A model generated the notes under the pieces. That model was given only the letters and a program-made list of their open reading frames with translations, was not told where the DNA came from and did not search any database. From a virus (lineage: Duplodnaviria; Caudoviricetes): a stretch of DNA of 42,418 bases. Below are positions 10,012 through 40,998 of the stretch, one piece after another. Where the stretch lies: IMG/VR virus record IMGVR_UViG_3300037137_000910, positions 1 through 42,418 of that record. One strand, given 5' to 3'. The position numbers and the translations under genes are program-made. How positions within the stretch are numbered: position 1 is the first letter of the stretch; every line of letters begins with the position of its first letter.

Positions 10012-10759
10012 CGGCGTCTCCTGGCTTGTAGGCTTTCAGCGCGTCCGCAAAGGTTCCTTCGGAGGGGCGGGGGCTCTGCCGGGGGCGGTCCTGTGCCTTG
10101 GCAAGCCAGCGGTTCAAGAACGCGGTTCGGAGCTTCTTGCGCCTTGCCGGGTTAGCCATTTCCCAAGCGTGGGCTGCGGCTATCTCGGCCCGAAGGTCAA
10201 CGCCGGGGTAGGCTTGCCGCCACGTGCCTTCAAGCTGTGGGATGGCAAAGCAAAGCTTGGGGTCGGCTTCGTAGAGCGGCAACCCCCTCAACAGCGGCGG
10301 TATGGCGTGAGCCGCGGCCGTTGGCGGCTCCGCCCTACTGACGTTGTTATTCTCTTGTAGTTGTGGTTGTGGTTGTGGTTGTGCTAGCGTCCCGCTATCC
10401 TTAAGGATATCCGTATGGCTATCCTTACGGCTATCCGTACGGCTACGCCATGCGCGCTTATTAGCCTCCCCTCCGGCGCGAGCCCAGCGGCATCGCGTTT
10501 CGTAGACCCGGCCAGCCTTGAGCAGTTCTGCGTCTACCCGCTTGTGACGCCAGTGCCCACCATCATCCGCGAAAAAACGCTTGACCCGCTTCCATTCCCG
10601 CCCAGCTATGGCCCTGGCTTCCTTGTCCGCCAGCGGCCCGCCCTTGCGCCAGTAGGCCATGAGGCAGAGCAGATAGGCCCCATGCTCCGCCCGGGTCAGG
10701 TCAACCGTATCTGCGGTGTAGTCTCCGATGTACAAGGGCATCCACGTGTCAGGCTTCAT
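10001..10759 (-). CDS. DUF1376/YdaU-family replication initiator
   Basis: WMPLYIGDYTADTVDLTRAEHGAYLLCLMAYW; C-terminal FLNRWL. Confidence 0.88.
   Translation of the reverse strand: MKPDTWMPLYIGDYTADTVDLTRAEHGAYLLCLMAYWRKGGPLADKEARAIAGREWKRVKRFFADDGGHWRHKRVDAELLKAGRVYETRCRWARAGGEANKRAWRSRTDSRKDSHTDILKDSGTLAQPQPQPQLQENNNVSRAEPPTAAAHAIPPLLRGLPLYEADPKLCFAIPQLEGTWRQAYPGVDLRAEIAAAHAWEMANPARRKKLRTAFLNRWLAKAQDRPRQSPRPSEGTFADALKAYKPGDADGR
10361..10445. repeat. Iterons / probable replication origin inside the initiator gene
   Basis: 12-bp tandem units GCTATCCTTAAG, GATATCCGTATG, GCTATCCTTACG, GCTATCCGTACG (10394-10441), adjacent to a TTGTGG run. Confidence 0.7.
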
Positions 10760-11789
10760 TCGTCTCTCCGAAAAGCTGCCCCTGCCCCTCGCGGTGCTCA
10801 GCAGGGGTGAGGCCCTTGGCGGCGGCGGCGAGGCGCGGCGTTGCCAGTTCCCCGGCGTACTTGGGGTTAAGCTCGAAGCCTATGAAGCGCCGGCCGAGGC
10901 GCAAGGCGACCTCGCCGGTTGTTCCGCTTCCGCAGAACGGGTCAAGAACGATGTCGCCCGGTTGCGACAGGTGCGGGTATTCGGCCACCTTGAAGTCGTG
11001 GGTACTCGCCTTGATGCACGTCTCCGGAATCTCCGGCGGGAACGTGGCGAAGTGCGCCTCGGCGTAGGGCTTCGTCGTGATTGTCCAGACGGAGCGTCGG
11101 TTGCGTGTGCCTTGCTTGCCCCATCCCCGAATATTGGCCTCATTTCCGGCCGTTCTGTCGTGCCTTGTGCTGTTTGGGTCAAAAGTTGCATACCCAGGGG
11201 CGTGTACGTCCGTGGATGCCGGTTCCGCCACCGCCCCCGCGTCGTAGTAGTACCTTGCCGATTTCGTCAGCATGAAGATGTACTCATGCGCCTTGGTGCA
11301 GCGGTCGGTGACGCTCTCTGGCATGGGGTTCGGCTTCGCCCAGATGATGTCCTGACGCAGCCACCAGCCGTCCGCTTGCAGGGCGAAGGCTACGCGCCAG
11401 GGGATGCCAACGAGGTTCTTCGGCGCAAGGCCAGTCTGTCCGTCGCGGTTGGGCCCAGCGTATCCGCTCCCCTTATGGCTCTTGGTCTGCGGGACCTGTC
11501 CGCTTCCGCTTCCGTTGGCAACGTAACTATCCCCCAAGTTCAGCCACAGCACCCCATCATCCCGCAGCACCCGGCGTAACTCGCGGCCCCACGCGACCAA
11601 CTTTTCGATGTATTCCCGCGGCGTCTTTTCAAGGCCCCACTGACCGGGCACTCCATAGTCGCGCAGGCCCCAGTATGGCGGGCTGGTGACGCAACACTGA
11701 ATGCACCCGTCTGGCAGGAGCTTCATGGCTGACAAACAGTCCGCGCAGTGGACGCGGTTGAGGGCGAAGGGGCCGAGTATGTCAGGCAC
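10749..11789 (-). CDS. DNA amino-methyltransferase, beta class (SPPY, probably N4-C)
   Basis: TSPPY, WLNLGDSY, HFATFP, LDPFCGSGTT; probable GTG start 11789. Confidence 0.93.
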   Translation of the reverse strand: MPDILGPFALNRVHCADCLSAMKLLPDGCIQCCVTSPPYWGLRDYGVPGQWGLEKTPREYIEKLVAWGRELRRVLRDDGVLWLNLGDSYVANGSGSGQVPQTKSHKGSGYAGPNRDGQTGLAPKNLVGIPWRVAFALQADGWWLRQDIIWAKPNPMPESVTDRCTKAHEYIFMLTKSARYYYDAGAVAEPASTDVHAPGYATFDPNSTRHDRTAGNEANIRGWGKQGTRNRRSVWTITTKPYAEAHFATFPPEIPETCIKASTHDFKVAEYPHLSQPGDIVLDPFCGSGTTGEVALRLGRRFIGFELNPKYAGELATPRLAAAAKGLTPAEHREGQGQLFGETNEA

Positions 11790-12975
11790 GGCGGCCCCCG
11801 AAAAGCTGCCCCTGGCCTTCGCGGTGCTCGGCGAGGGTGAGGCCCGCGGCGGCGGCTTCCAGGCGCGGGGCGCAGATGTCGCCGGCATAGTGCGCGTCAA
11901 GGTCGAAGCCGATGAACCGGAAGCCGAGTTGCAGGGCGGCCACGCCGGTAGACCCGCTGCCCGCAAACGGGTCAAGCACAATCCCGCCGGGCGGAGTCAC
12001 CAGCCGGACAAGGTAACGCATCAGGTCAAGCGGCTTGACCGTCGGATGGTCATTGCCCTTGCCGCGGTCCTGTTTGTCGGCCTTCGCGGTGTAGAAGAAG
12101 CGGGCGGCGGAACCGGTTGAGGCGGGAATATCATAATCGTTTATACGTGAGAGGTCTTTCCCAAAGGCTGCATTACTACCATTCGGTCGGCCGCATACGT
12201 GCGCGCCACTTGCGGATTGCGGGAACCCCTCCAGCACCTCCGCGCTGCCATCGTGGATGAGGTTGGCGGGGAAACGACCTGGAGGATTGATTATTTCGGC
12301 GACTCGCGCGTCACCCCCGTAAATGCCCTTACCCATGCTTCCGGAACGGAGAGTGACGGTCTGCGCAACCCCCACCCTGCTCCCGTCAATGTTCATCGCC
12401 CCCGTCCCGTGCTTGAGGACATTGGCCGCCACGGTGCCCTCCAGCGGCTTGCGGGCGACGATGATCGGCTCCCAGGCGGGCTTGAGCGCAGTGCCCCAAC
12501 CCTGCCACCTGATGGCCTCGCCGCTGATGGCCTCGCCGGGCTTCAGCCTATCGGTTGAGATTGTGCCCTTCGTGCCGCAACCGCCCGGCACTCGCGGCCG
12601 GACGCACCCCGCCGCCTTGTCAATCGCCTTGCTCACGTCCAGCGACTTCGGGAAGCCGGAACCGTATACCCACATTACACAATCCCGAATCTCCCAGCCC
12701 GCGTCTTCAATCGCGCAGGCCAGCCGGTGAAACGTCCGGGTGCCGCCGAAGGCCAGCAGGTGCGCGCCGGGCTTGGCAACGCGGAGGGCGGCGGCCCAGG
12801 TCTCTACCCGGTGAGCAATGCCCGTTTTGTCAAAGTTCTTGCCCATGAAACCGATTTCGTATGGGGGGTCGGTCACCACCGCGTCCACGCACCCATCCGG
12901 CAGGAGCTTCATGGCCTCCACGCAATCCGCGCAGTGGACGCGGTTTAGCAGAAACGGGCCGAGGGCGTCAGGCAT
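11782..12975 (-). CDS. DNA amino-methyltransferase, beta class (DPPY, probably N6-A)
   Basis: TDPPY, GFPKS, GRFPANLIHDGS, HPTVKP, LDPFAGSGST. Confidence 0.94.
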   Translation of the reverse strand: MPDALGPFLLNRVHCADCVEAMKLLPDGCVDAVVTDPPYEIGFMGKNFDKTGIAHRVETWAAALRVAKPGAHLLAFGGTRTFHRLACAIEDAGWEIRDCVMWVYGSGFPKSLDVSKAIDKAAGCVRPRVPGGCGTKGTISTDRLKPGEAISGEAIRWQGWGTALKPAWEPIIVARKPLEGTVAANVLKHGTGAMNIDGSRVGVAQTVTLRSGSMGKGIYGGDARVAEIINPPGRFPANLIHDGSAEVLEGFPQSASGAHVCGRPNGSNAAFGKDLSRINDYDIPASTGSAARFFYTAKADKQDRGKGNDHPTVKPLDLMRYLVRLVTPPGGIVLDPFAGSGSTGVAALQLGFRFIGFDLDAHYAGDICAPRLEAAAAGLTLAEHREGQGQLFGGRRA

Positions 12976-15635: not shown

Positions 15636-16319
15636 CTACTCACCCGCCCCTCCCGGCTGCGGCTTTGATGGCGGCGATGACTTGCGCCGCGACCCACCAG
15701 ACGATTGAGTTGCCCAGTGCGCCAAGTACGCTGCGGTGTAGCCCATCAACCAGGCCGACAGAGTTGCCAGGCGCACGGCGAATACGCCCGTCAGGGAAAG
15801 CGGCCCAGAGGTAATCGGACCAGAAACTTCCGCCAGGCTCAGTTGCCGCCCCGCCGCTATTCGCTTCTCTGTCCGTCGCGCCGATGCGCCCCGGTGCCCG
15901 TGATGCGCCTCTTGCGCTTGCAGCGTCGGGTAGGTGCTCACCAGCCCGCCCAGCGTCAACTCGCCCTTGCGCTTGCCGCTCCGGCACTTGTACCCGCCGC
16001 CCAGCATCACCGGCGTCGGGTAGAGGGACTTGGGCGCCGGTGTCAGGTAGGTCAGGCCCTTCGCCGGACTGCCCGACTGCCTTTGGTCTGCCTCCTGTGC
16101 GGTGGGCCACAATCCAGTACCTGTGCCGGAGTTGCGGGGAGTCCACGGCGCAAGCTGGAATATCAAAAACCGGCCCGACTTCGTAGCCTTTTCCCGCCAC
16201 CTCAGCAAGTATTCCGTCGAGCCCCACGTCCTCGATTCCAGGAGGGTTCTCGAATAGGCACCAATCGGGCCGGACAGATTCGAGCGCCGCCAGAGCCGCC
16301 GGCCAGAGCCAGCGGTCAT
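15636..16319 (-). CDS. Overprinted C5-MTase beta-subunit-like ORF (target recognition + motif IX)
   Basis: Alternative frame open over the whole MTase; LWPT/LYPTP/YPT repeats and AWLMGY...W; start codon uncertain. Confidence 0.7.
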   Translation of the reverse strand: MTAGSGRRLWRRSNLSGPIGAYSRTLLESRTWGSTEYLLRWREKATKSGRFLIFQLAPWTPRNSGTGTGLWPTAQEADQRQSGSPAKGLTYLTPAPKSLYPTPVMLGGGYKCRSGKRKGELTLGGLVSTYPTLQAQEAHHGHRGASARRTEKRIAAGRQLSLAEVSGPITSGPLSLTGVFAVRLATLSAWLMGYTAAYLAHWATQSSGGSRRKSSPPSKPQPGGAGE

Positions 16320-16572
16320 CGCCCGCGCCCCCCTGCTTCCCGGCTCGGGATGCAGGCTGGCAGGGAACCCCGGCAGTGAGGAGGAAGGCCCCGCGGTATT
16401 GCTCTCCGGGGAAGGTTCGCGCGTCGGGGTGGACGGGGACTCCGGGCCAGGCTTTGGCGAGGAAGTCCCGGCATCGGGGGTCGCATTCGCACATGGCGAC
16501 GGTGCGGATGCCATTGGCTCGGGCGGCAAGGGAGAAGCCGCCGAGCCCGGTAAACAGGTCAACATGCGTCAC
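15640..16572 (-). CDS. C5-cytosine DNA methyltransferase (alpha chain, motifs I-VIII and X)
   Basis: DLFTGLGG, AGVPCQP, FENPPG, QLRHRYWIVA, LGALGNSIV. Confidence 0.92.
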   Translation of the reverse strand: MTHVDLFTGLGGFSLAARANGIRTVAMCECDPRCRDFLAKAWPGVPVHPDARTFPGEQYRGAFLLTAGVPCQPASRAGKQGGAGDDRWLWPAALAALESVRPDWCLFENPPGIEDVGLDGILAEVAGKGYEVGPVFDIPACAVDSPQLRHRYWIVAHRTGGRPKAVGQSGEGPDLPDTGAQVPLPDAGDAGRRVQVPERQAQGRVDAGRAGEHLPDAASARGASRAPGRIGATDREANSGGAATEPGGSFWSDYLWAAFPDGRIRRAPGNSVGLVDGLHRSVLGALGNSIVWWVAAQVIAAIKAAAGRGG

Positions 16573-17453
16573 TCACCGCCTCCCGGCATTTGCGACCACG
16601 CGCGGGCGGAGAGCAGGCGGCCGGCGTGCTTGCGGTTGGCCCGCGCCAGGTCGGCGGGGCAAGTGGTTTCGGGTAAGCCGAGCACTCGGCGGTAATCGCA
16701 GAGATAGCAGTCCTCGCCATAGGCTCCGGCGGCTCGACATTCGCGGGTCAAGCGCCAGATGGCGTCGCCGTGATTCTTGAAGAAGAACGGCACTCCGGCG
16801 GCCACGCACTGGTCGCGGATGCTTCGGACCCAGTCCGGGTGCATCGGCCGCGCGCCGGGTCCGGACTCGCCGCCGACGATCACCCATGAAAGCCCGAGCG
16901 CTTCCCGGCACACATCGCACCCAAGGTTCGCCGGAGCACCCTCACAGCCAGGGCGCGCTCCGAGCCAAGGCGACAGGTCCACCGGCCCCAGCATCGGCTC
17001 GATGGACAGGAACCGGACGGCGGCGGGCACCCGCAAGAGCAGCGGGATTTTGGCGTCGGCCTCCGCTTGGTTGCAGACGGTGACGCCGGCCCACACGTTG
17101 CGGGGCCAGTCGCCGAACCAGACTGACCACTTCGCTATGCGTTCGGCGCGCTTGGTCAAGACCAAGAAGCGCTCCCGCGGGTGCAGGTCCGCAATGTGCA
17201 TGGTTCGGGAGATTTCATCGTCGGTAACAACCTCATGGAACAGGTCAGCCCACACCGCCCAGGCAGATGCCTTGCGATGGCGCGGAAGATTCAGTCGGTC
17301 AGCCCGGAACTTGACGGGCAGGTGGCCGCCGCGCCAGTGCTTTTCCATCGCGCGCAACCAGCAGTGAGCGCAGCCCGGCGAGCAGGGGGTGCAGCCTTCG
17401 ACAAGCGACCAAGCGCGGTCCCACCAGCGCCCCTCCCCGATCCGGTCAAACAC
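16569..17453 (-). CDS. DUF5131 (phage Gp37/Gp68, radical-SAM-like)
   Basis: GCTPCSPGCAHCW, DLFHE, LTKR, FLSIEPMLGPV, WVIVGGESG, VPFFFK. Confidence 0.92.
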   Translation of the reverse strand: MFDRIGEGRWWDRAWSLVEGCTPCSPGCAHCWLRAMEKHWRGGHLPVKFRADRLNLPRHRKASAWAVWADLFHEVVTDDEISRTMHIADLHPRERFLVLTKRAERIAKWSVWFGDWPRNVWAGVTVCNQAEADAKIPLLLRVPAAVRFLSIEPMLGPVDLSPWLGARPGCEGAPANLGCDVCREALGLSWVIVGGESGPGARPMHPDWVRSIRDQCVAAGVPFFFKNHGDAIWRLTRECRAAGAYGEDCYLCDYRRVLGLPETTCPADLARANRKHAGRLLSARAWSQMPGGGE

Positions 17454-17751: not shown

Positions 17752-17915
17752 TTCTGTGCCTCCCTCTCGACCACGGCCAGGATCGCCCGGATGTCTTGAT
17801 CGCAGAACCTGCTTCTATCACATCCACTGCACTGCCGGTTCCCGCACAGTTCGCAGAATGCCGCCCGGCACTTCTCGACCAGCGCCTCGTACTTCGGGGA
17901 GAGCTTCCTAGCCAT
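17748..17915 (-). CDS. 55-aa Cys-rich protein
   Basis: [32 protein letters not shown]...; coupled both sides. Confidence 0.6.
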   Translation of the reverse strand: MARKLSPKYEALVEKCRAAFCELCGNRQCSGCDRSRFCDQDIRAILAVVEREAQK

Positions 17916-18516
17916 TGCCGGCCTCCTTTGCAGCTACTTTCGCGTCCGGTAGCACTTCGTTAGCACTTGCTGCCAGCTCAATCAGGTCCGCGAGATGCGC
18001 GACTTGGATGCGCGATTCCGCATCCCCGGCCGCAGCCCAGGACGCAGCCCTGGCCGCAGCCCTGGCCGCAGCCCAGGCCGCATCCCCGGCCGCATCCCCG
18101 GCCGCAGCCCCGGCCGCAGCCCAGGCCGCATCCCCGGCCGCAGCCCCGGCCGCAGCCCAGGCCGCATCCCCGGCCGCAGCCCTATCTTCCTGCGAGATTT
18201 CCGCGCCCGCAGCTTCCAGCGCAGCGAGCCCAGCCGCGCCGTAGCAGTCGGCCAGTCGATCGTCCGTCAGGCCGCTCCCATACAATTCCAGCGCCCGGTG
18301 CGCGCAGTCGGCCGCGAACTCCCGCAGGAGCACGTCGGGCAGTACTCCCTCCCGCAGCAGCGCCCATAGCCGGTCACCCGCGGGGAGCTTGTGAGTCTTC
18401 GCTACTTCCAGTGGAGTCGCCGCCCCCGAGGGGAACGCCCGCAACCACTTCTTGCGGGACTCCTCCTGGCCGTAACAGGGGTTCCAACTGAGCATCAGGT
18501 CGGTTGTGATTTTCAT
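17908..18516 (-). CDS. Phage protein with AAGD/AAWA low-complexity repeats
   Basis: DRLWALLR...[12 protein letters not shown] followed by Ala-rich repeats; GGAGG RBS. Confidence 0.85.
18019..18182. repeat. 12-bp tandem coding repeats
   Basis: Variants of CCCCGGCCGCAT / CCCAGGCCGCAG. Confidence 0.9.
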
Positions 18517-20939: not shown

Positions 20940-21246
20940 CGGACGCCTCCGCTTCGTAGATGAGGGCCAGGACGGTCCACATGTCGGCGGCCTCGGGGGT
21001 GTAACGCAGGGAACGGTTGGCATCCAAGACGCGGGCCGCCTTTCCCCACGGGTTTTCCCCGTCCCAGTAGCACACCAGGTTGGCCCGGTAGAGGGGGCAT
21101 GGGTCGCAAAACGGTTTCCCCCGGAACACCCTGCATAGGGCACAACATCTAGGGGTAATGCCGCGATCCTTCCCTTCCCAAACTCTCCTCCAGTGCGCCA
21201 TGCTCTGCTTGATGGCCCGGAGAGTCGCGGCGCGCGAGGGGGTCAT
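20932..21246 (-). CDS. Cys-rich hypothetical protein
   Basis: CALC...CDPCPL...C. Confidence 0.65.
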
Positions 21247-21980
21247 GGCGTCTTCTCCAGTCTGCCGTTGTCATTTACCTTGTACCCGTCGGGCGGATTT
21301 GTCGGGCGATACGCGCGGGACAGGTCCGCGCCGGACAGGTCCGCGCGGGACAGGTTCGCGCCGTACAGGTTCGCGCGGGACAGGTTCGCGCCGGACAGGT
21401 TCGCGCCGTACAGGTTCGCGCGGGACAGGTTCGCGCCGGACAGGTCCGCGCCGGACAGGTCCGCGCCGGACAGGTTCGCGCGGGACAGGTTCGCGCCGGA
21501 CAGGTCCGCGCCGGACAGGTCCGCGCCGGACAGGTTCGCGCGGGACAGGTCCGCGCGGGACAGGTTCGCGCCGTACAGGTTCGCGCGGGACAGGTTCGCG
21601 CCGTACAGGTCCGCGCGGGAAATGTCGGCCTTCGGGTCCACGCTCCGCAGGGAAGCCGCCAGGAACGCCCGGACCCGCGGGAACATGCAGGCCAGCGACC
21701 AATCCAGCGAGAGCCGGAACGTTATCCGGGCTTCCGCGAAAGCCGCCTTGTCGGAACTGTCACTGTGGAGCGGCCCCCGGCCTTCGGCCAGATACAACTC
21801 GGCCCCCGGCTTCCACCAGGGGAGCGGGTCACTGGTCAAGTGGTAGCCGCTATGACAGCAGTTCGGCTTGACCTTCGGCGTCCACTTGCCGAGCTTGTAG
21901 GTGAAATCCCCGCCATGACAAGACTTGCCGGCGACCAAGACCTTGAACAGCGCCGGCCCGGCCGGTTGCTTTTCCGCCAC
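21243..21980 (-). CDS. Pentapeptide-repeat protein with N-terminal CHSGYH domain
   Basis: About 20 A(D/N)L(S/Y)(R/G) repeats; probable GTG start 21980. Confidence 0.9.
21312..21620. repeat. 15-bp tandem coding repeats (pentapeptide array)
   Basis: GGACAGGT(C/T)CGCGC-type units. Confidence 0.92.
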
Positions 21981-21981
21981 C

Positions 21982-22287
21982 CTACACCAGCCTTTCCCAA
22001 AGCACCCACACCGCGACCGCAACCACCCCGAAGGCCAGAAGCGCCAGAGAAATGAGCAGCGGGAAATCGTCGGGCCACAAAGGGCGGTAGAAGCAACCGA
22101 TGGTGGGCTGGCGGCCGGGTCCACACCGGCTATCGGTACCACCGTGGGGGCACTCGGGGTCGGACACGTGCCGCCCCGACCCCCCTGCGTGTCCATTTCC
22201 ACGCCGCGCCAGTCCCACTGAATGGCAAGCCGCCGCGACAGGCGACGGCCGCTCCGGCCCCTGGGGTAGAGCCGGCAACGTTATCAC
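21982..22287 (-). CDS. Hypothetical protein with C-terminal TM helix
   Basis: [23 protein letters not shown]; start uncertain. Confidence 0.45.
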
Positions 22288-25764: not shown

Positions 25765-27927
25765 TTATCTCCCGTCGAGCGTGTATTGGGTGGTGTCCGC
25801 CTCGCGGTCCAGCCGGAAGCTGCGGATGCAGGCGTTAAGTTGCATCGCCTGGCGGTTAGGGGCCTCGCCGGATACGGAAAGCTCGCCGACCAAGTGCCCT
25901 ATCGGCCAGGGGTCTATCCGAAGGCCGGTTAAGACCAGCACCCCGGAAATGTTCGGAGAGTTCTTTATCTCCATCCGGTAGGCCATTTCGGCAGCCAGGG
26001 CCGCGGACTCGTTGACAACCATATCGGGAACGGCGGGAGTGCCGAACGTGTCATAGGCGGTAGGCTTGCCGGCCGTCGGATCACCATCGCCGTTGACGGG
26101 CAGAACGCAATGGATACGCTCCGCGTTGCGGTATTCGTTCCCGCCGTCAAAGAAGAATTCCCGCGCGCGGGCGCTGGATACGGTCTTGTCCACTACCGCG
26201 TCAATCGGCTCCGCGGTTTCAAGTCCCATGGTAACCATGATGTGATAGGCTACGGGCGTGGTGGTGTCCCCGTTCCACGTCCAGGGGGTTGCGCCGGTTC
26301 GGGCCTCTTCAGAAAGTAGAATGCCGGTACAGTCGGGCAGAACCGTTACCCCGACGTGGACGGGGCGCGGTTCCCAAGACGCGCCGCCGTTGGTTGACCG
26401 GAACACCAATGGGTCAAGGGGCGCGAGCCGGGGGACGCTATCATAGGCCCCGCGCTGTGACCATCCTTGGGTTATGAGGCGGCGCAAGCCTGGGTTGTTG
26501 CCGGCGGCAATCATCTTCTTGGCGTTGCCGTTGAATACGTATGTGCCCCAATTGTAGCCGACGGGGACGCGATAGCGGCGGTAGACGTTGCGGTACTTGT
26601 CGTCCTTGAGTGCGTCGGCGTTCTTAGCGGCGACAGCGGCCACATAGGCGGTCACGTCGCTATCGGAGGCGTCCATGACCAGAGACGCGGGGGCATCTTC
26701 GGCAAACTGCTCCGGCAACGTGGTCAGCGTCGTTTCGACGATTCGGCGGCGGCTTACGGCATAGCCGCGGTTGAACCACTCAGTCTGATCGCGGGTGATT
26801 TTCCCGTCTAGCACATCCGGCGCGGCGTCACTGACGGTCTGCCCGTAGTCTCCCCACGTATAGTCTAGCAAGTCGGGAGTTCCGGCAACCGCGCCTAGAC
26901 CTTCATGGACGTTGAAGCAGACGATATCCGATTTGTTCCCGTCAGCGTTGGGAACTAGCGTCCAGTCATACGGCCCGGCCTTTTGCAAGAGCATGGAGAT
27001 AATCCGGGCGGTGTCAATGCCGGTGACCGCGAAATCGGACAGGAACACCCGGACGCCCAGCGAATCCACGAAAAGCCAGTATAGGTTGTCGGGGTCGGTT
27101 TCGCCGGGAGGCGTCTCGCTGGCCGCGGGCATATTGATAAAGCCGGCCATGGACAGGTGCGCGATTTCAATTGGCGGGCCGGCGAAAAAGTAGAATGCCC
27201 GGATATGATTCCAGACGTGGCCGCCCAGCCAGTAATCGGCCCACTCTTCCATCGCGGGGTCAGCCGGGCCGCTCTCCGCCGTCTGGTCAAGCCGGTTAAG
27301 CATCGGTTCAACCCATGCGCCCATGTCTTCGCTGTCTTCGCCCAGCGTAGTGCCGATCTGCCCGCGGTCCGGCTTGCCGCCCTCATTGAACGTGGTGCGG
27401 AAGCTCTTGACGAATATGGGTGTCGGCACTTCCGGAGCATAGAAGTCATAGATGTATCGGCCGTAGACCGGGGCCTTGCGCATGAAGTGGCGGTAGTCTT
27501 CGCAATGCCAGGTGGTGACCGCCGCCCCGAGGTCATAGGTCGGCTTGACTACCACGCCGATGAAGATAGGCCCGAAGGTAGACGGCGCGGCTACAGTGTT
27601 AGCCTCTACCTTGACCAGCGAGTCAACGGTAATGTGCGCGCCGGAAAAGAGCGTCCCGGTTTCGCCGTTGCCGGTTAGCCCTTCGTCGAAGTCGGCCGGC
27701 GAACCCTGCGACTTGAATCCATCCGCTTCGGTCGGCGCTTTGTTTTCAATCAGGATGCAGACGTTGGGTTGCGGGCCGCTGTAGCCCTGCAACGTCTCGA
27801 ATTTCAGTTCGGGGGCAAGCGTCCACGTGCCGGGGGCCGCGGGGTCTTTTGTCGCCGCGTAGTAGACCTTGAACTGCTGGACGGGGCGTTTGACGCCGCG
27901 AGGGTCGGGAGGCGGGGGTTCGGGCAT
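25765..27927 (-). CDS. Tail tip / baseplate hub-like protein
   Basis: 720 aa after the Dit-like gene; PIFIGVVV...CEDYRHFM segment typical of hub proteins. Confidence 0.6.
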   Translation of the reverse strand: MPEPPPPDPRGVKRPVQQFKVYYAATKDPAAPGTWTLAPELKFETLQGYSGPQPNVCILIENKAPTEADGFKSQGSPADFDEGLTGNGETGTLFSGAHITVDSLVKVEANTVAAPSTFGPIFIGVVVKPTYDLGAAVTTWHCEDYRHFMRKAPVYGRYIYDFYAPEVPTPIFVKSFRTTFNEGGKPDRGQIGTTLGEDSEDMGAWVEPMLNRLDQTAESGPADPAMEEWADYWLGGHVWNHIRAFYFFAGPPIEIAHLSMAGFINMPAASETPPGETDPDNLYWLFVDSLGVRVFLSDFAVTGIDTARIISMLLQKAGPYDWTLVPNADGNKSDIVCFNVHEGLGAVAGTPDLLDYTWGDYGQTVSDAAPDVLDGKITRDQTEWFNRGYAVSRRRIVETTLTTLPEQFAEDAPASLVMDASDSDVTAYVAAVAAKNADALKDDKYRNVYRRYRVPVGYNWGTYVFNGNAKKMIAAGNNPGLRRLITQGWSQRGAYDSVPRLAPLDPLVFRSTNGGASWEPRPVHVGVTVLPDCTGILLSEEARTGATPWTWNGDTTTPVAYHIMVTMGLETAEPIDAVVDKTVSSARAREFFFDGGNEYRNAERIHCVLPVNGDGDPTAGKPTAYDTFGTPAVPDMVVNESAALAAEMAYRMEIKNSPNISGVLVLTGLRIDPWPIGHLVGELSVSGEAPNRQAMQLNACIRSFRLDREADTTQYTLDGR

Positions 27928-37526: not shown

Positions 37527-38132
37527 TCAGATTCTCCCCAAGTGAACGGCTAGATAGTTCCGGGCGCGCGCGGGGTCCGGCGTTTCAGACACATACCGGA
37601 GCACCTGGCCGCCGGCGGCGCGCGCCATGGCGGCTATCTGCTCGCGGGCAAAGGTGGAGCGCGCGTCAATCATCGCGTGAACCTCCGGGATAGACATTCG
37701 CGGGTCCGGCCCGGTCGGCTCGTTAAAGTGCAGGGCGAAGATACCGCCCGGCAAGAGCGCCGGGATAACCCCGCAGAGTTGCGCTTGTAGGGCTTCGGCC
37801 GGCATGTGCGGGCTAACCCAATAGGACAGCGCCAGGTCAAAGGCGTTCCCCGGCAAGTGCCGCGGGTCAAGGTAGCCGGGAACCGGGACGCGCCGCAAGG
37901 CTTCGGGGCAGATATCCAGGGCGGAGCACAGCCAGCCGCCGCGCGTCAGTTCCCGTATCCACTCGCCGGTGCCGACGCCGATGCATAGTATCCGCGCGCC
38001 GGGCTGTACCAGCGGGCCGACGCCCAGGAACTCAATGTGCGTCTGGAGCGTGGAGCCCGACAGCGCCCCCGAGTCGCCGGGTTGGCAATGCACCCGCGCC
38101 CAATAGGCGGCGAGTTCGGCCTTGACGTTCAC
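37527..38132 (-). CDS. Class I SAM-dependent methyltransferase
   Basis: ILCIGVGTG, ALDIC, FDLA, LLPGG. Confidence 0.85.
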   Translation of the reverse strand: MNVKAELAAYWARVHCQPGDSGALSGSTLQTHIEFLGVGPLVQPGARILCIGVGTGEWIRELTRGGWLCSALDICPEALRRVPVPGYLDPRHLPGNAFDLALSYWVSPHMPAEALQAQLCGVIPALLPGGIFALHFNEPTGPDPRMSIPEVHAMIDARSTFAREQIAAMARAAGGQVLRYVSETPDPARARNYLAVHLGRI

Positions 38133-38785
38133 GCGGCCACCTTCGGCCATACGGGCTTACCATCGTCGCCGTAGATTTGGCCCACGAAGCCATCGTAAGG
38201 CGGGTGCGCGGGGAACGGCTCGGCCGACCATTGCAACGGCACAATGGAGCTATGCGTCAAGAGGCTCCTGGATACGTGCGGGTAGATAGCCGATTCCATG
38301 AAGCGCTGATCGTCCATGTAAGACGCCGACTGACCGCAGCGGGTCGTAACCGCGCCGTAGAGCGCAATGGGGATCGCCAGTTCCTTGATACCCCACATGC
38401 CCCCCATAATCGGAACGCTCCGGTGATACGGGTGGTCATGCATGGAGTGGGCGGTTTTGCCGGAGTCAAGCCAAGCTTTGACGGCGGCGGCCTCCCGGAC
38501 GTTCAAGCGGCTATCGGCATCGCGGAAGATGATGTGACTTGCCGCGGGGGCATCCCAAATCGCCAGGAGCCGCCAGAACATGCCGGAAGCCCCGAGGCTC
38601 GGCCCCATGCGTACAACGTGGACGCCTAGCCGCTCCAGTTCGGTCCCGTCCAGCCCTTGCTCCAGGTATACGCGCATGTGCCAGTCCGGATAGACCGTCG
38701 GCCAGAGCCGGGCGTTTTCGACGGCGCCCTGGATATAGCGCGGGGCGTCGCCATAGACGCAGAACGAAATGATTTTGAGGCTCAT
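38129..38785 (-). CDS. Putative DxD glycosyltransferase
   Basis: IISFCVYG, MFWRLL, FRDADSRL, HDHPYH..PIMGGMWG, DQ. Confidence 0.65.
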   Translation of the reverse strand: MSLKIISFCVYGDAPRYIQGAVENARLWPTVYPDWHMRVYLEQGLDGTELERLGVHVVRMGPSLGASGMFWRLLAIWDAPAASHIIFRDADSRLNVREAAAVKAWLDSGKTAHSMHDHPYHRSVPIMGGMWGIKELAIPIALYGAVTTRCGQSASYMDDQRFMESAIYPHVSRSLLTHSSIVPLQWSAEPFPAHPPYDGFVGQIYGDDGKPVWPKVAA

Positions 38786-39441
38786 GGCCGCGCCTCGAAG
38801 AGCCGGTTGCCGATGGTGGTTGCGTGGAGCCGATAGCCTAGCTCCACAAGGTATTCGTCGGGGCACTTCGCCAGGCTCGCCGGGCGGCTGGCCCACTTCT
38901 CGGTCATAATCGGATTGGTGGTAAACCCGCCCTCCACGCAGACAAGGCGTGGGCGGTAGCGCTTCCAGTCGAGGGTTTGCAGGACTATCAGGTCGTAGCC
39001 TTCGCAATCCACGGTGAGGAAGTCAATGTGCCGGTCCTTGGCGTGTTCGTCGAGGATTTCGGTCAGCGGGGCCAGGGTAGTAACCTGTTCTATGAACGTC
39101 GCGCCATACTGGCCGATGCAGCGGTCCCGCCACTCGGGGTCAAGCGTGGAGAATTGCGCGCGGGAGGGCAGCGGCTCGGTGTAGAGCGTCGCCATGTGGC
39201 GGTAGGGGCCGACGGCTAGGTTAACGCAGGTAACGTCGGGGCGGTCCCTGTACTTCGCGGCCAGCGCGGCAAAGGGCAGCGCCGACGGTTCAATAAGCAA
39301 CCCGCTCCACCCGCGCGCCAGTAGCTCCTCACTGCAAGAATTCAGGTGCCCGTCGTTAGCTCCCACGTCTACCACGAAGCCCCGCGGGGTGTCCTTGAAA
39401 TAGGCCGCAAGCACGGCGTCTTCTGTGTATTGACTAGGCAC
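38782..39441 (-). CDS. FkbM-family methyltransferase
   Basis: SQYTED, VDVGANDG, GWSGLLIEP, IDFLTVDCEGYD, RPRLVCVE. Confidence 0.92.
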   Translation of the reverse strand: MPSQYTEDAVLAAYFKDTPRGFVVDVGANDGHLNSCSEELLARGWSGLLIEPSALPFAALAAKYRDRPDVTCVNLAVGPYRHMATLYTEPLPSRAQFSTLDPEWRDRCIGQYGATFIEQVTTLAPLTEILDEHAKDRHIDFLTVDCEGYDLIVLQTLDWKRYRPRLVCVEGGFTTNPIMTEKWASRPASLAKCPDEYLVELGYRLHATTIGNRLFEARP

Positions 39442-40228
39442 AGGCCGCGATCCTTTCGCGCCAGTAGCCGAGCGTTAGCTTGTGCATGGCGGGGGCGTCG
39501 AAGCGGGCGGCAAGCACCGGGCGCTCCGCCGCAAGCCGCTCCGGTGTCACTTCGGCCCAATCGTCAACCAGCAGGGCCGGCATGTCATCTAGGACCTTCA
39601 TGGCCCGTGACCGCTTGACCACGGGGATACTGCCGAGCGCTATGGCCTCCCAATGCCGGTGACAGTCGGGGCCGGCTCCGGGCGGCGAAAGCACGTAGTC
39701 ACAGGCGGCGATATCGGCGTAGAACTTTTCGGGCGGGACTTGATGGGCAGTCAAAACCCAATCCCGCCAGGCGGGCCGGGCGAAGTGATACCACGTATTC
39801 AGCCGGTCGGCCATCGGCCCGTAGGCTTTGTGATGCTTGCAGAAGTTGACATAAAGCGCGGCCTTGGCTGGCGGGCGCGGCTGGCGGGCTTGCTTGACCA
39901 GACAACCGAGCATGTCAGCGGAGGAGATGAACCCGATAGGCAGGGCCTCTACCCGCGGGCTGGCGGTGTCTACGTTGTTTGAGAACCAGCGAAGCACGTT
40001 GGCCGGGAGTGCCGCGGCTACGGTGTCCGTTACTGAGGCGTCACTGAAAGAGGAGAGCAGAACGCAAGGCCCGCCACGGGCCAGGGCATCAAGGTTCTTG
40101 CCGACGAAGTGCGTCCGGCAATACCGCACGGCCCCGGAGTCGGGGACCGTCTCCGCGCGATGATCCGCGCCGGCCAGATCGGCAACCCGCTGGCAGTCTA
40201 TCCAGTCGGCTTGCCAGTCGAGGTTCAC
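39434..40228 (-). CDS. Exostosin/GT47-like glycosyltransferase
   Basis: LPIG, LYVNF, YVLSPPGAGPDCHRHWEAIALGSIPVV, PALLVDDW. Confidence 0.82.
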   Translation of the reverse strand: MNLDWQADWIDCQRVADLAGADHRAETVPDSGAVRYCRTHFVGKNLDALARGGPCVLLSSFSDASVTDTVAAALPANVLRWFSNNVDTASPRVEALPIGFISSADMLGCLVKQARQPRPPAKAALYVNFCKHHKAYGPMADRLNTWYHFARPAWRDWVLTAHQVPPEKFYADIAACDYVLSPPGAGPDCHRHWEAIALGSIPVVKRSRAMKVLDDMPALLVDDWAEVTPERLAAERPVLAARFDAPAMHKLTLGYWRERIAACA

Positions 40229-40998
40229 TTGTAGCGTTCCTTGAAAGCGACGGAGAGATTGGAGTGCCGATCCCATTGATGAATAACGCAGGGGATACCC
40301 GCTTCGTTATGAAGCAGGCCGTTGGCATCCGGGGTCAGCGACTCGCGCGGCAGATAGCCGACGGTGTAGACCGGCCCCTTCTCATTCTCCCAAATCGTAC
40401 AATTTGGCTCTGCGGTGTAGAAGCCGACTTCATGCTGCGCCTGGTCAGTCAGCATGAGGTTATGGCCCTTGCGCGGCCCCTTGAAAATCCGGTCCCAAAG
40501 GCGGAAGCAGTAGGTCGCGACTTCGGCCCCGCCGCCGGCGATAGTGCCGGAGCAGATGATAGGCTTCGTGTGCAGCCGGGTCAGCATTTCCGGGCCGAAG
40601 TAGCCGGTGACGGCTGGGCCGTTATACGGGCAGTCACCGATGGTCATTAGGCGGCATTCCTCGAAGGAATGCAGGCCGGTTGCGGGCATGTTCTTGGCCG
40701 GGTCGGTTTGCCAGATAAGGTCGCGGAGGTCGCAGACGATAACCTGATCCGGCATTTGCGGGAGGTCGCGGAGGTAAATCCAGTATTCGCGGAAGCGGAC
40801 GTTGCCGACGTGGAAGTCGGCGGGCACGATGAACGGGAGCCACTTGACGCGCAGGCCCTTGAAGCATGGCCAGTTAGCCGAGCCGTCACCCAACAGGACA
40901 AGTTCCCCCGCGTAGCCTGTGCGGGCAAGGGACACGGCGAAGGGGCGGACCTGCTCCTCGGTGTAGTGCGTTGCGGCGGCCAGGATGATGCTTGTCAC
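40225..40998 (-). CDS. GT-A fold glycosyltransferase (PLOD-GT-like)
   Basis: VCDLRDLIWQTDP, ICSGTIAG, DQ, IHQWDR. Confidence 0.75.
   Translation of the reverse strand: MTSIILAAATHYTEEQVRPFAVSLARTGYAGELVLLGDGSANWPCFKGLRVKWLPFIVPADFHVGNVRFREYWIYLRDLPQMPDQVIVCDLRDLIWQTDPAKNMPATGLHSFEECRLMTIGDCPYNGPAVTGYFGPEMLTRLHTKPIICSGTIAGGGAEVATYCFRLWDRIFKGPRKGHNLMLTDQAQHEVGFYTAEPNCTIWENEKGPVYTVGYLPRESLTPDANGLLHNEAGIPCVIHQWDRHSNLSVAFKERYK

Follow-up and report, generated by a model that had tools for sequence, protein, structure and literature searches.

Can one stretch of about 930 bp in a phage genome encode two proteins in two frames of the same strand, and do these two proteins make up a single DNA methyltransferase? 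This question is raised by a cytosine methylase gene located in a complete virus record of 42,418 bases, the whole of which was analyzed here and is called the window. The window has direct terminal repeats and a GC content of 64%, and it encodes terminase, portal and major head genes. The two sequencing runs that match it best are sediment metagenomes. In one of them, which may be the source run and is not independent, the stretch lies in one contig with 0 differences. A contig from a second study shows a 6-nt insertion that preserves both frames.

Two overlapping frames in the methylase gene

As reported in the initial annotation, two frames of one strand are open over about 930 bp. Both are on the minus strand: the alpha frame (15640-16572, GTG start, 310 aa) and the beta frame (15636-16565, ATG start, 309 aa), which is in phase +1 relative to alpha. 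Their stop-to-stop overlap of 926 nt is the longest same-strand overlap of the genome (the next ones reach 705 and 591 nt), and the beta stop ends 4 nt past the alpha stop. The gene sits within a minus-strand block of DNA-metabolism genes, with a DUF5131 gene upstream, whose TGA is overlapped by the alpha GTG, and an endonuclease/resolvase-like phage gene (PHROG 93) downstream. The features of the locus are the following:

16563..16584, minus strand: shared start region, with GGGAGG before the alpha GTG and GGTGA 7 nt before the beta ATG (from the sequence)
15640..16572, minus strand: alpha chain of 310 aa, a C5-methyltransferase catalytic domain containing motifs I-VIII plus X, with an unconstrained spacer (Pfam, PHROG, model, Foldseek)
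16537..16560, minus strand: alpha motif I, DLFTGLGG, SAM binding
16354..16374, minus strand: alpha motif IV, AGVPCQP, with the catalytic Cys71, invariant across 112 relatives
16240..16254, minus strand: alpha motif VI, FENPP (alignment of relatives)
16111..16140, minus strand: alpha motif VIII, SPQLRHRYWI (alignment of relatives)
15835..16047, minus strand: alpha spacer (residues 176-246), rich in G/A/R, with predicted disorder and no conservation in the alpha frame
15700..15717, minus strand: alpha motif X, LGNSIV, which follows the beta LMG at 38 nt
15636..16565, minus strand: beta chain of at most 309 aa in the +1 frame, composed of a conserved N-part, then four PTP-type repeats, then a motif-IX-like block
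16146..16364, minus strand: conserved N-part of beta (PASL, MTAGSG, LLES, W.W..KAT, FQLAP), over alpha motifs IV-VIII
15918..16109, minus strand: beta repeats starting at W153 (16109), Y173 (16049), Y182 (16022) and Y212 (15932), putative target-recognition modules
15714..15773, minus strand: motif-IX-like block of beta, RLATLSAWLMGYTAAYLAHW, over alpha GLVDGLHRS

The alpha chain displays motifs I, IV (PC), VI (EN) and VIII of C5-methyltransferases in this order on a Rossmann-type large domain, and all its catalytic motifs agree with the invariant columns of its relatives. At its C-terminus, LGNSIV is followed by a helix predicted with confidence and aligns with motif X of M.EcoHK31I. Motif IX is absent from alpha, and the spacer occupies the place where the recognition domain and motif IX normally lie. 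The description of this chain given in the initial annotation (motifs I, IV, VI, VIII and X, a low-complexity middle, no motif IX) therefore holds. PF00145 only matches residues 1-162 (85.7 bits for a cut-off of 22), and PHROG 363 matches residues 1-305 (E = 3e-50). In the structure model, the large domain and the motif X helix are confident and residues 176-246 have a pLDDT below 50. Since the best Foldseek matches, M.HaeIII and M.HhaI (E about 1e-11), align over only 163 columns, the alpha chain lacks the small domain.

The beta chain of the window matched no Pfam, PHROG or NCBIfam model. Its close relatives match PHROG 1008 (E from 4e-21 to 3e-12), to which the window beta itself gave no match at E up to 1; both PHROG 363 (alpha) and PHROG 1008 (beta family) are labelled DNA methyltransferase. 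A word search recovered 119 homologues of beta and a profile search 32,352 protein clusters at E ≤0.001 and 18,980 at 1e-10, part of the weak matches being possibly driven by the repeats. Modeled alone, beta has a low-confidence structure (pTM 0.28); a fold search with this model reached a best Z of 3.4, which is uninformative given that low confidence, a PDB sequence search using the beta alignment gave no match, and the top clusters of the ESM Atlas are unnamed hypothetical proteins (0.95-0.96). The N-part is predicted to form two helices and a hairpin and is likely an alpha-binding surface. The repeats of the window read WPTA, YLTP, YPTP and YPTL, and the block reads GYT where GF/YP is usual. 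The initial annotation had seen repeats and a SAWLMGY block resembling motif IX. Both are indeed present in beta, but the direct likeness to canonical motif IX is weak: with a profile of six single-chain enzymes, the top-scoring position fell on the block for only 6 of 77 betas, and the block of the window was missed. Likewise, a repeat profile found nothing significant in single-chain enzymes (best score 0.4 bits, on TLTATDYK); their PT(L/I)T segments resemble the beta repeats by eye, with a profile score that is not significant.

Taken alone, the window gives only a modestly unlikely double opening. Synonymous resampling of the window indicates a chance of P ~0.08 for beta being open over motifs IV-VIII and of P ~0.12 for alpha being open over the spacer, i.e., about a 1-in-100 event (0.08 x 0.12). 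Therefore, the case rests on the relatives.

Other long open frames were noticed in the window. A 720-aa gene without Pfam or PHROG match (25765-27927, minus strand) contains a nested +1 frame (26955-27548, same-strand overlap of 591 nt). The opposite strand is also long-open in the genes of a pentapeptide-repeat protein (21243-22202, minus strand) and of an AAGDAAWA-repeat protein (17908-18516, minus strand).

Conservation and selection of the two frames in relatives

The initial annotation had pointed to homologues as a check, where conservation of both frames would support its reading and stops in the second frame of close homologues would speak against it. We collected 89 viral loci picked by alpha (80 that ranked best among at least 566 confirmed ones, and nine others), of which one is a duplicate and five are cut by contig ends. 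Both frames are intact in 78 of the 83 distinct resolvable loci (74 recognized by script and four missed by its pattern but seen intact otherwise), so that a conserved second chain is found in the other frame inside the alpha gene. The remaining loci comprise two with a single indel shifting both frames, one alpha-into-beta fusion, one with an alpha stop and only one with a beta stop. The +2 frame of the alpha-picked loci contains from 4 to 25 stops in every locus. Of the 149 distinct loci picked by beta (viral and genome), 142 have the two frames intact and in the same phase. For viruses, 80 loci were fetched, 78 of them distinct (72 intact, four with one alpha stop, one fusion and one in which no alpha core was found), and for genomes, 80 were fetched, 71 of them distinct (70 intact and one with an alpha stop). 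The alpha-picked and beta-picked viral sets have some contigs in common.

Several particular cases were encountered. In five loci (L031, L054, L091/L127, L102 and L221), a single TAA or TAG interrupts the alpha spacer; beta is intact there, and past the stop the alpha frame is again open over motif X. These genes are perhaps broken, or perhaps reach motif X in some other way. One viral contig (L042:133-1955) carries two beta-bearing genes in tandem, and several copies are found within single genome assemblies (L228 and L227; L255-L259). The layout also occurs in archaeal, cyanobacterial and Bacteroides plasmid records (L272:1198-1989 from a Methanomethylovorans plasmid, L184, L279), where only alpha is annotated.

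The selection acting on each frame was analyzed in 77 distinct complete loci, whose segments were paired by DNA similarity without regard to frame; since the pairs share ancestry, the counts given here are not independent. All the spacer pairs (99/99) are in phase, and spacer differences are concentrated at the third position of beta codons (1408 vs 469 and 261 at the other positions). Among changed codons of the spacer/repeat region, 1200 of 1704 are silent in beta and only 83 of 1697 in alpha. The reverse holds upstream of motif IV, where silent changes make up 5854 of 8630 for alpha and 852 of 9158 for beta, and both frames are constrained over motifs IV-VIII and IX-X. Beta thus evolves under a purifying selection of its own, over a stretch that opens about 15 codons ahead of motif IV, takes in the repeats and extends to the motif-IX-like block. 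The distribution of beta-frame stops in the 77 loci shows the same boundary, with none vs 75 expected in the 15 codons preceding the PC codon and 152 vs 171 expected farther upstream; the bins after the PC codon are empty through locus selection and carry no weight as evidence. For the window itself, 9 of the 13 changes that separate its first repeats from those of the relative L001 are silent in beta. This family evidence removes chance as an explanation of the double opening. Overall, the gene is real, conserved and dual-coded.

Three other explanations of the double opening were discarded. An assembly artefact was rejected because of the family-wide conservation and because cultured phages (Leyra, K1H and Lc-Nu) have this layout. 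A chance opening in a genome with 64% GC was rejected on account of the frame-specific selection in relatives, and antisense coding because of the stops found in the reverse frames of relatives.

How the two frames are translated can be approached from the same loci. ATGs just upstream of the boundary of beta constraint are preceded by a Shine-Dalgarno-like site in 43 of 80 cases, vs 32 of 277 for internal ATGs. Together with the stop boundary, this enrichment points to beta having its own start. In the first 82 codons of the window beta, ATGs are found only at 16565 and 16514, and L001 retains that of 16565 and not that of 16514; we infer that beta is initiated at 16565, the alpha and beta starts being separated by 7 nt in the window. 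Beta is open back to the alpha start in 21 of the 77 loci, 14 of which exhibit the start-overlapping sequence (A/G/T)TGAATG with starts 4 nt apart (L016, L025, L058, L059, L067, L100, L106, L108, L110, L112, L120, L122, L139 and L146), a possible shared initiation site. Furthermore, a Met at beta residue 83, conserved at that place in 64 of the 77 loci, is a possible second beta start.

The initial annotation had also considered double frameshifting, a rival in which a ribosome would read alpha to motif VIII, slip by +1 into the repeats and motif IX, and slip back for motif X, yielding one chain. Such a double programmed frameshift would bring back the canonical motif order. It could also accommodate the 5 of 147 beta-picked loci whose alpha spacer has a stop and whose beta is intact, as well as the in-frame fusions from the alpha start to beta that are on record (L079/L125, P0050 and P0074), which are possibly indel errors. 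However, each frame is open where frameshifting needs no opening: the alpha spacer, which would be dispensable, has no stop in 142 of 147 loci, compared with an expectation of about 7% (4.8/69 and 3.7/46), and beta, which would be dispensable before motif VIII, lacks the 75 expected stops even before motif IV. Furthermore, no slippery site is conserved, with 7 of 77 loci having one after motif VIII vs 19 of 77 in a control zone, only 3 of 77 having one in phase between motifs IX and X, and none in the window. M.EcoHK31I, for its part, functions as two separate chains (PMC2836561). We therefore consider this mechanism highly improbable.

Comparison with M.EcoHK31I and other layouts

M.EcoHK31I is an alpha/beta C5-methyltransferase of E. 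coli that targets YGGCCR. Its beta chain, which carries motif IX, is encoded inside the alpha gene in another frame, alpha carrying motifs I-VIII and X (PMC2836561, PMC3404938), and its recognition domain has been assigned to alpha (PMC2836561). In vivo, alpha without beta gave no protection (PMC2836561), and this two-frame design has been described as an exception among C5-methyltransferases (PMC3404938). Searching 5426 E. coli genomes with a primer from the supplement of PMC2836561 located the M.EcoHK31I gene in 81 of them. One near-identical allele (L188, NZ_CP024886), which adjoins a restriction nuclease gene, encodes an alpha of 309 aa and a beta of 176 aa whose starts agree with the primers.

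The window and L188 share several properties. Beta is in phase +1 to alpha in both, and the register of the dual-coded segment is the same, alpha G-I-S-R lying over beta Q-G-F-P in L188 and G-L-H-R over M-G-Y-T in the window. In L188, motif IX lies over the stretch just ahead of motif X and keeps the register of the window block (Pfam places this motif at model positions up to 298), with an IX-to-X spacing of 44 nt vs 38 nt in the window. This LMG-to-motif X spacing of 38 nt is also found in 61 of 77 relatives. The L188 alpha matches the family alpha profile end-to-end, including the segment before motif X (HMMER, E = 8e-54), and PHROG 363 (E = 2e-68), which is common to both alphas. In a tree of catalytic domains (37 rows, 160 columns) with a small outgroup and midpoint root only, L188 groups with all the multi-frame forms against seven single-chain enzymes (support 98/87). 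The profile of the family block scores only 6.6 bits on M.EcoHK31I beta. Thus, the distribution of motifs (I-VIII and X in alpha, putative IX in beta) agrees with M.EcoHK31I in layout and register, with a weak direct score for motif IX, and the M.EcoHK31I-like two-chain architecture put forward in the initial annotation gains support from the shared phase, the shared register and beta's own purifying selection. From these sequence comparisons, the window gene would be a variant of the M.EcoHK31I kind rather than a separate kind.

The two systems also differ in several respects. M.EcoHK31I belongs to a restriction-modification pair, whereas the window gene is a phage orphan. M.EcoHK31I beta starts 310 nt into alpha and has neither PTP repeats nor a match to PHROG 1008, whereas the window beta is open over the whole gene. 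Lastly, the recognition domain of M.EcoHK31I lies in alpha, whereas the window spacer is selected in beta and not in alpha (83/1697 silent in alpha). Variable and exchangeable repeat modules in a nested chain are thus a property of the window family, unlike M.EcoHK31I.

Overall, three crossover layouts were observed. In the window, the putative motif IX is nested. In mycobacteriophage Hoot (L185:1080-2079), the second chain has both IX and X in frame and overlaps the first by 179 nt. In Gordonia phage Baddon (L021:1486-2556), the motif IX block is inside alpha, in frame just before X, and the repeats alone are nested in +1. Baddon and Hoot both have the block in frame immediately ahead of motif X, at the place expected of motif IX, and the assignment of the window block to motif IX relies on these layouts and on the register. 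M.AquI is a natural two-polypeptide C5-methyltransferase (PMC3404938) whose small chain has both IX and X; motif X stays in alpha in the window, which is therefore not an M.AquI-type split, and Hoot has an M.AquI-type split built with the beta of the window family.

These layouts also bear on another rival, in which beta is genuine yet independent, acting as a regulator or DNA-binding accessory, and alpha needs no partner for its activity, its specificity being perhaps relaxed. The lack of a fold match for beta (best Z 3.4) and its weak similarity to canonical motif IX go in this direction. However, alpha lacks the small domain (163-column match to M.HhaI and M.HaeIII), and M.EcoHK31I alpha without beta gave no protection (PMC2836561). 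Furthermore, the beta-type chain of Hoot carries X and the Baddon block is inside alpha, which argues that the pieces are parts of one enzyme. We give very little credit to an independent beta.

The nested gene is annotated in GenBank for Paenibacillus phage Leyra and coliphage K1H, only alpha is annotated in C72C1, Lc-Nu, Golestan and plasmid prophages, and only beta in Porphyromonas phage018a. For one Paenibacillus phage, two cytosine methylases appear in a table of PMC6070908, with no discussion of nesting in the accessible part of that source, and the accessible parts of PMC3025963 and PMC10885494 contain no description of the two-frame layout. No description of the two-frame layout of this phage family turned up in our literature search, which covers older papers and subscription journals only thinly.

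A probable two-chain enzyme and its putative recognition modules

We hold it likely, with good confidence, that the gene is translated from two separate starts into two chains, which would join to form a single DNA cytosine-5 methyltransferase. Both chains would be translated from one mRNA, from starts 7 nt apart in the window phage. Beta would dock on alpha via its N-part and motif IX helices and supply the small DNA-reading domain. The PTP repeats would choose the target, and their gain or loss would only lengthen or shorten a passive alpha spacer.

Tandem modules, variable in number and exchangeable, are present between motifs VIII and IX, but in the nested chain. The number of repeats per locus ranges from 0 to 6 and correlates with spacer length (rho 0.84, n = 77), and near-identical repeats are found again in other phages and at other positions. 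Their position, copy-number variation and sharing among phages fit target-recognition modules, a function that we propose for the PTP repeats. Multispecific C5-methyltransferases of Bacillus temperate phages have arrayed recognition domains directed against many restriction systems (PMC12707154). These are single polypeptides, whereas the window array is in a nested frame, and the two are likened here by description only. A more complete proposal, which we would place a little short of probable, is that the specificity apparatus lies in the hidden frame, the PTP repeats being plug-in cassettes shuffled to give a multispecific two-chain enzyme, with the alpha frame as a passive linker and both chains made at a fixed ratio from one shared ribosome-binding region.

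The repeats of the window phage also raise the question of whether this copy is still functional. A close variant contig (depth 4.6) was compared with the window over 15955-16054. Among the spacer differences listed, six in number, all change beta and five are silent in alpha, a pattern opposite to that of the family. At five of these six sites, the variant contig has the beta residue of L001, and it has two more codons (6 bases). For this reason, the third repeat of the window looks derived; it seems oddly diverged from that of close relatives and to have been recently altered by decay or by a specificity change.

It could accordingly be argued that the family encodes a two-chain methylase but that the window copy is partly decayed, its repeats having drifted and its enzyme being inactive or having lost specificities. 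Besides the derived-looking third repeat (L001 residue at 5/6 sites and two extra codons in the variant contig), three of the four window repeats depart from WPTP. However, both frames are intact, the catalytic motifs match invariant columns, the first repeats differ from those of L001 mostly by changes silent in beta (9/13), and clustered amino-acid change is also expected from a specificity change. Partial decay therefore appears quite improbable to us.

Annotation with Pfam and PHROG revealed no cognate restriction endonuclease among the neighbors of the methylase gene. According to the two-chain reading, the enzyme, which no nuclease gene adjoins, would methylate the phage DNA to protect it against restriction by the host. 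In all, the phage encodes three DNA methylases, including two whose genes are 2.7-5 kb downstream of the methylase gene:

10749-12975, minus strand: two amino-methylase genes in tandem (N6_N4_Mtase, PHROG 67)

In the window, 6-mer palindromes are depleted (529 observed vs 926 expected), 17 of 64 six-base palindromes are missing and GATC occurs 66 times vs 141 expected. Palindrome avoidance is general and CpG is not lost (1.10), and no specific target was called from word biases in the window. In addition, Methyltransf_11 and FkbM genes of small-molecule-type methyltransferases and an RXYLT1-like gene (37527-40276, minus strand) possibly form a glycan or virion modification cluster.

Described so far as an exception, the two-frame design is the general case in a large family of phages and prophages (18,980 clusters at E ≤1e-10). 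Since mostly alpha is annotated, the specificity of these enzymes would be unreadable from the annotated protein, and a recoded or codon-optimized alpha would be predicted to be inactive. If the repeats are recognition cassettes, this family would amount to an extensive natural library of short, modular units that read DNA, and would offer a clean case of two same-strand frames sharing out selection.
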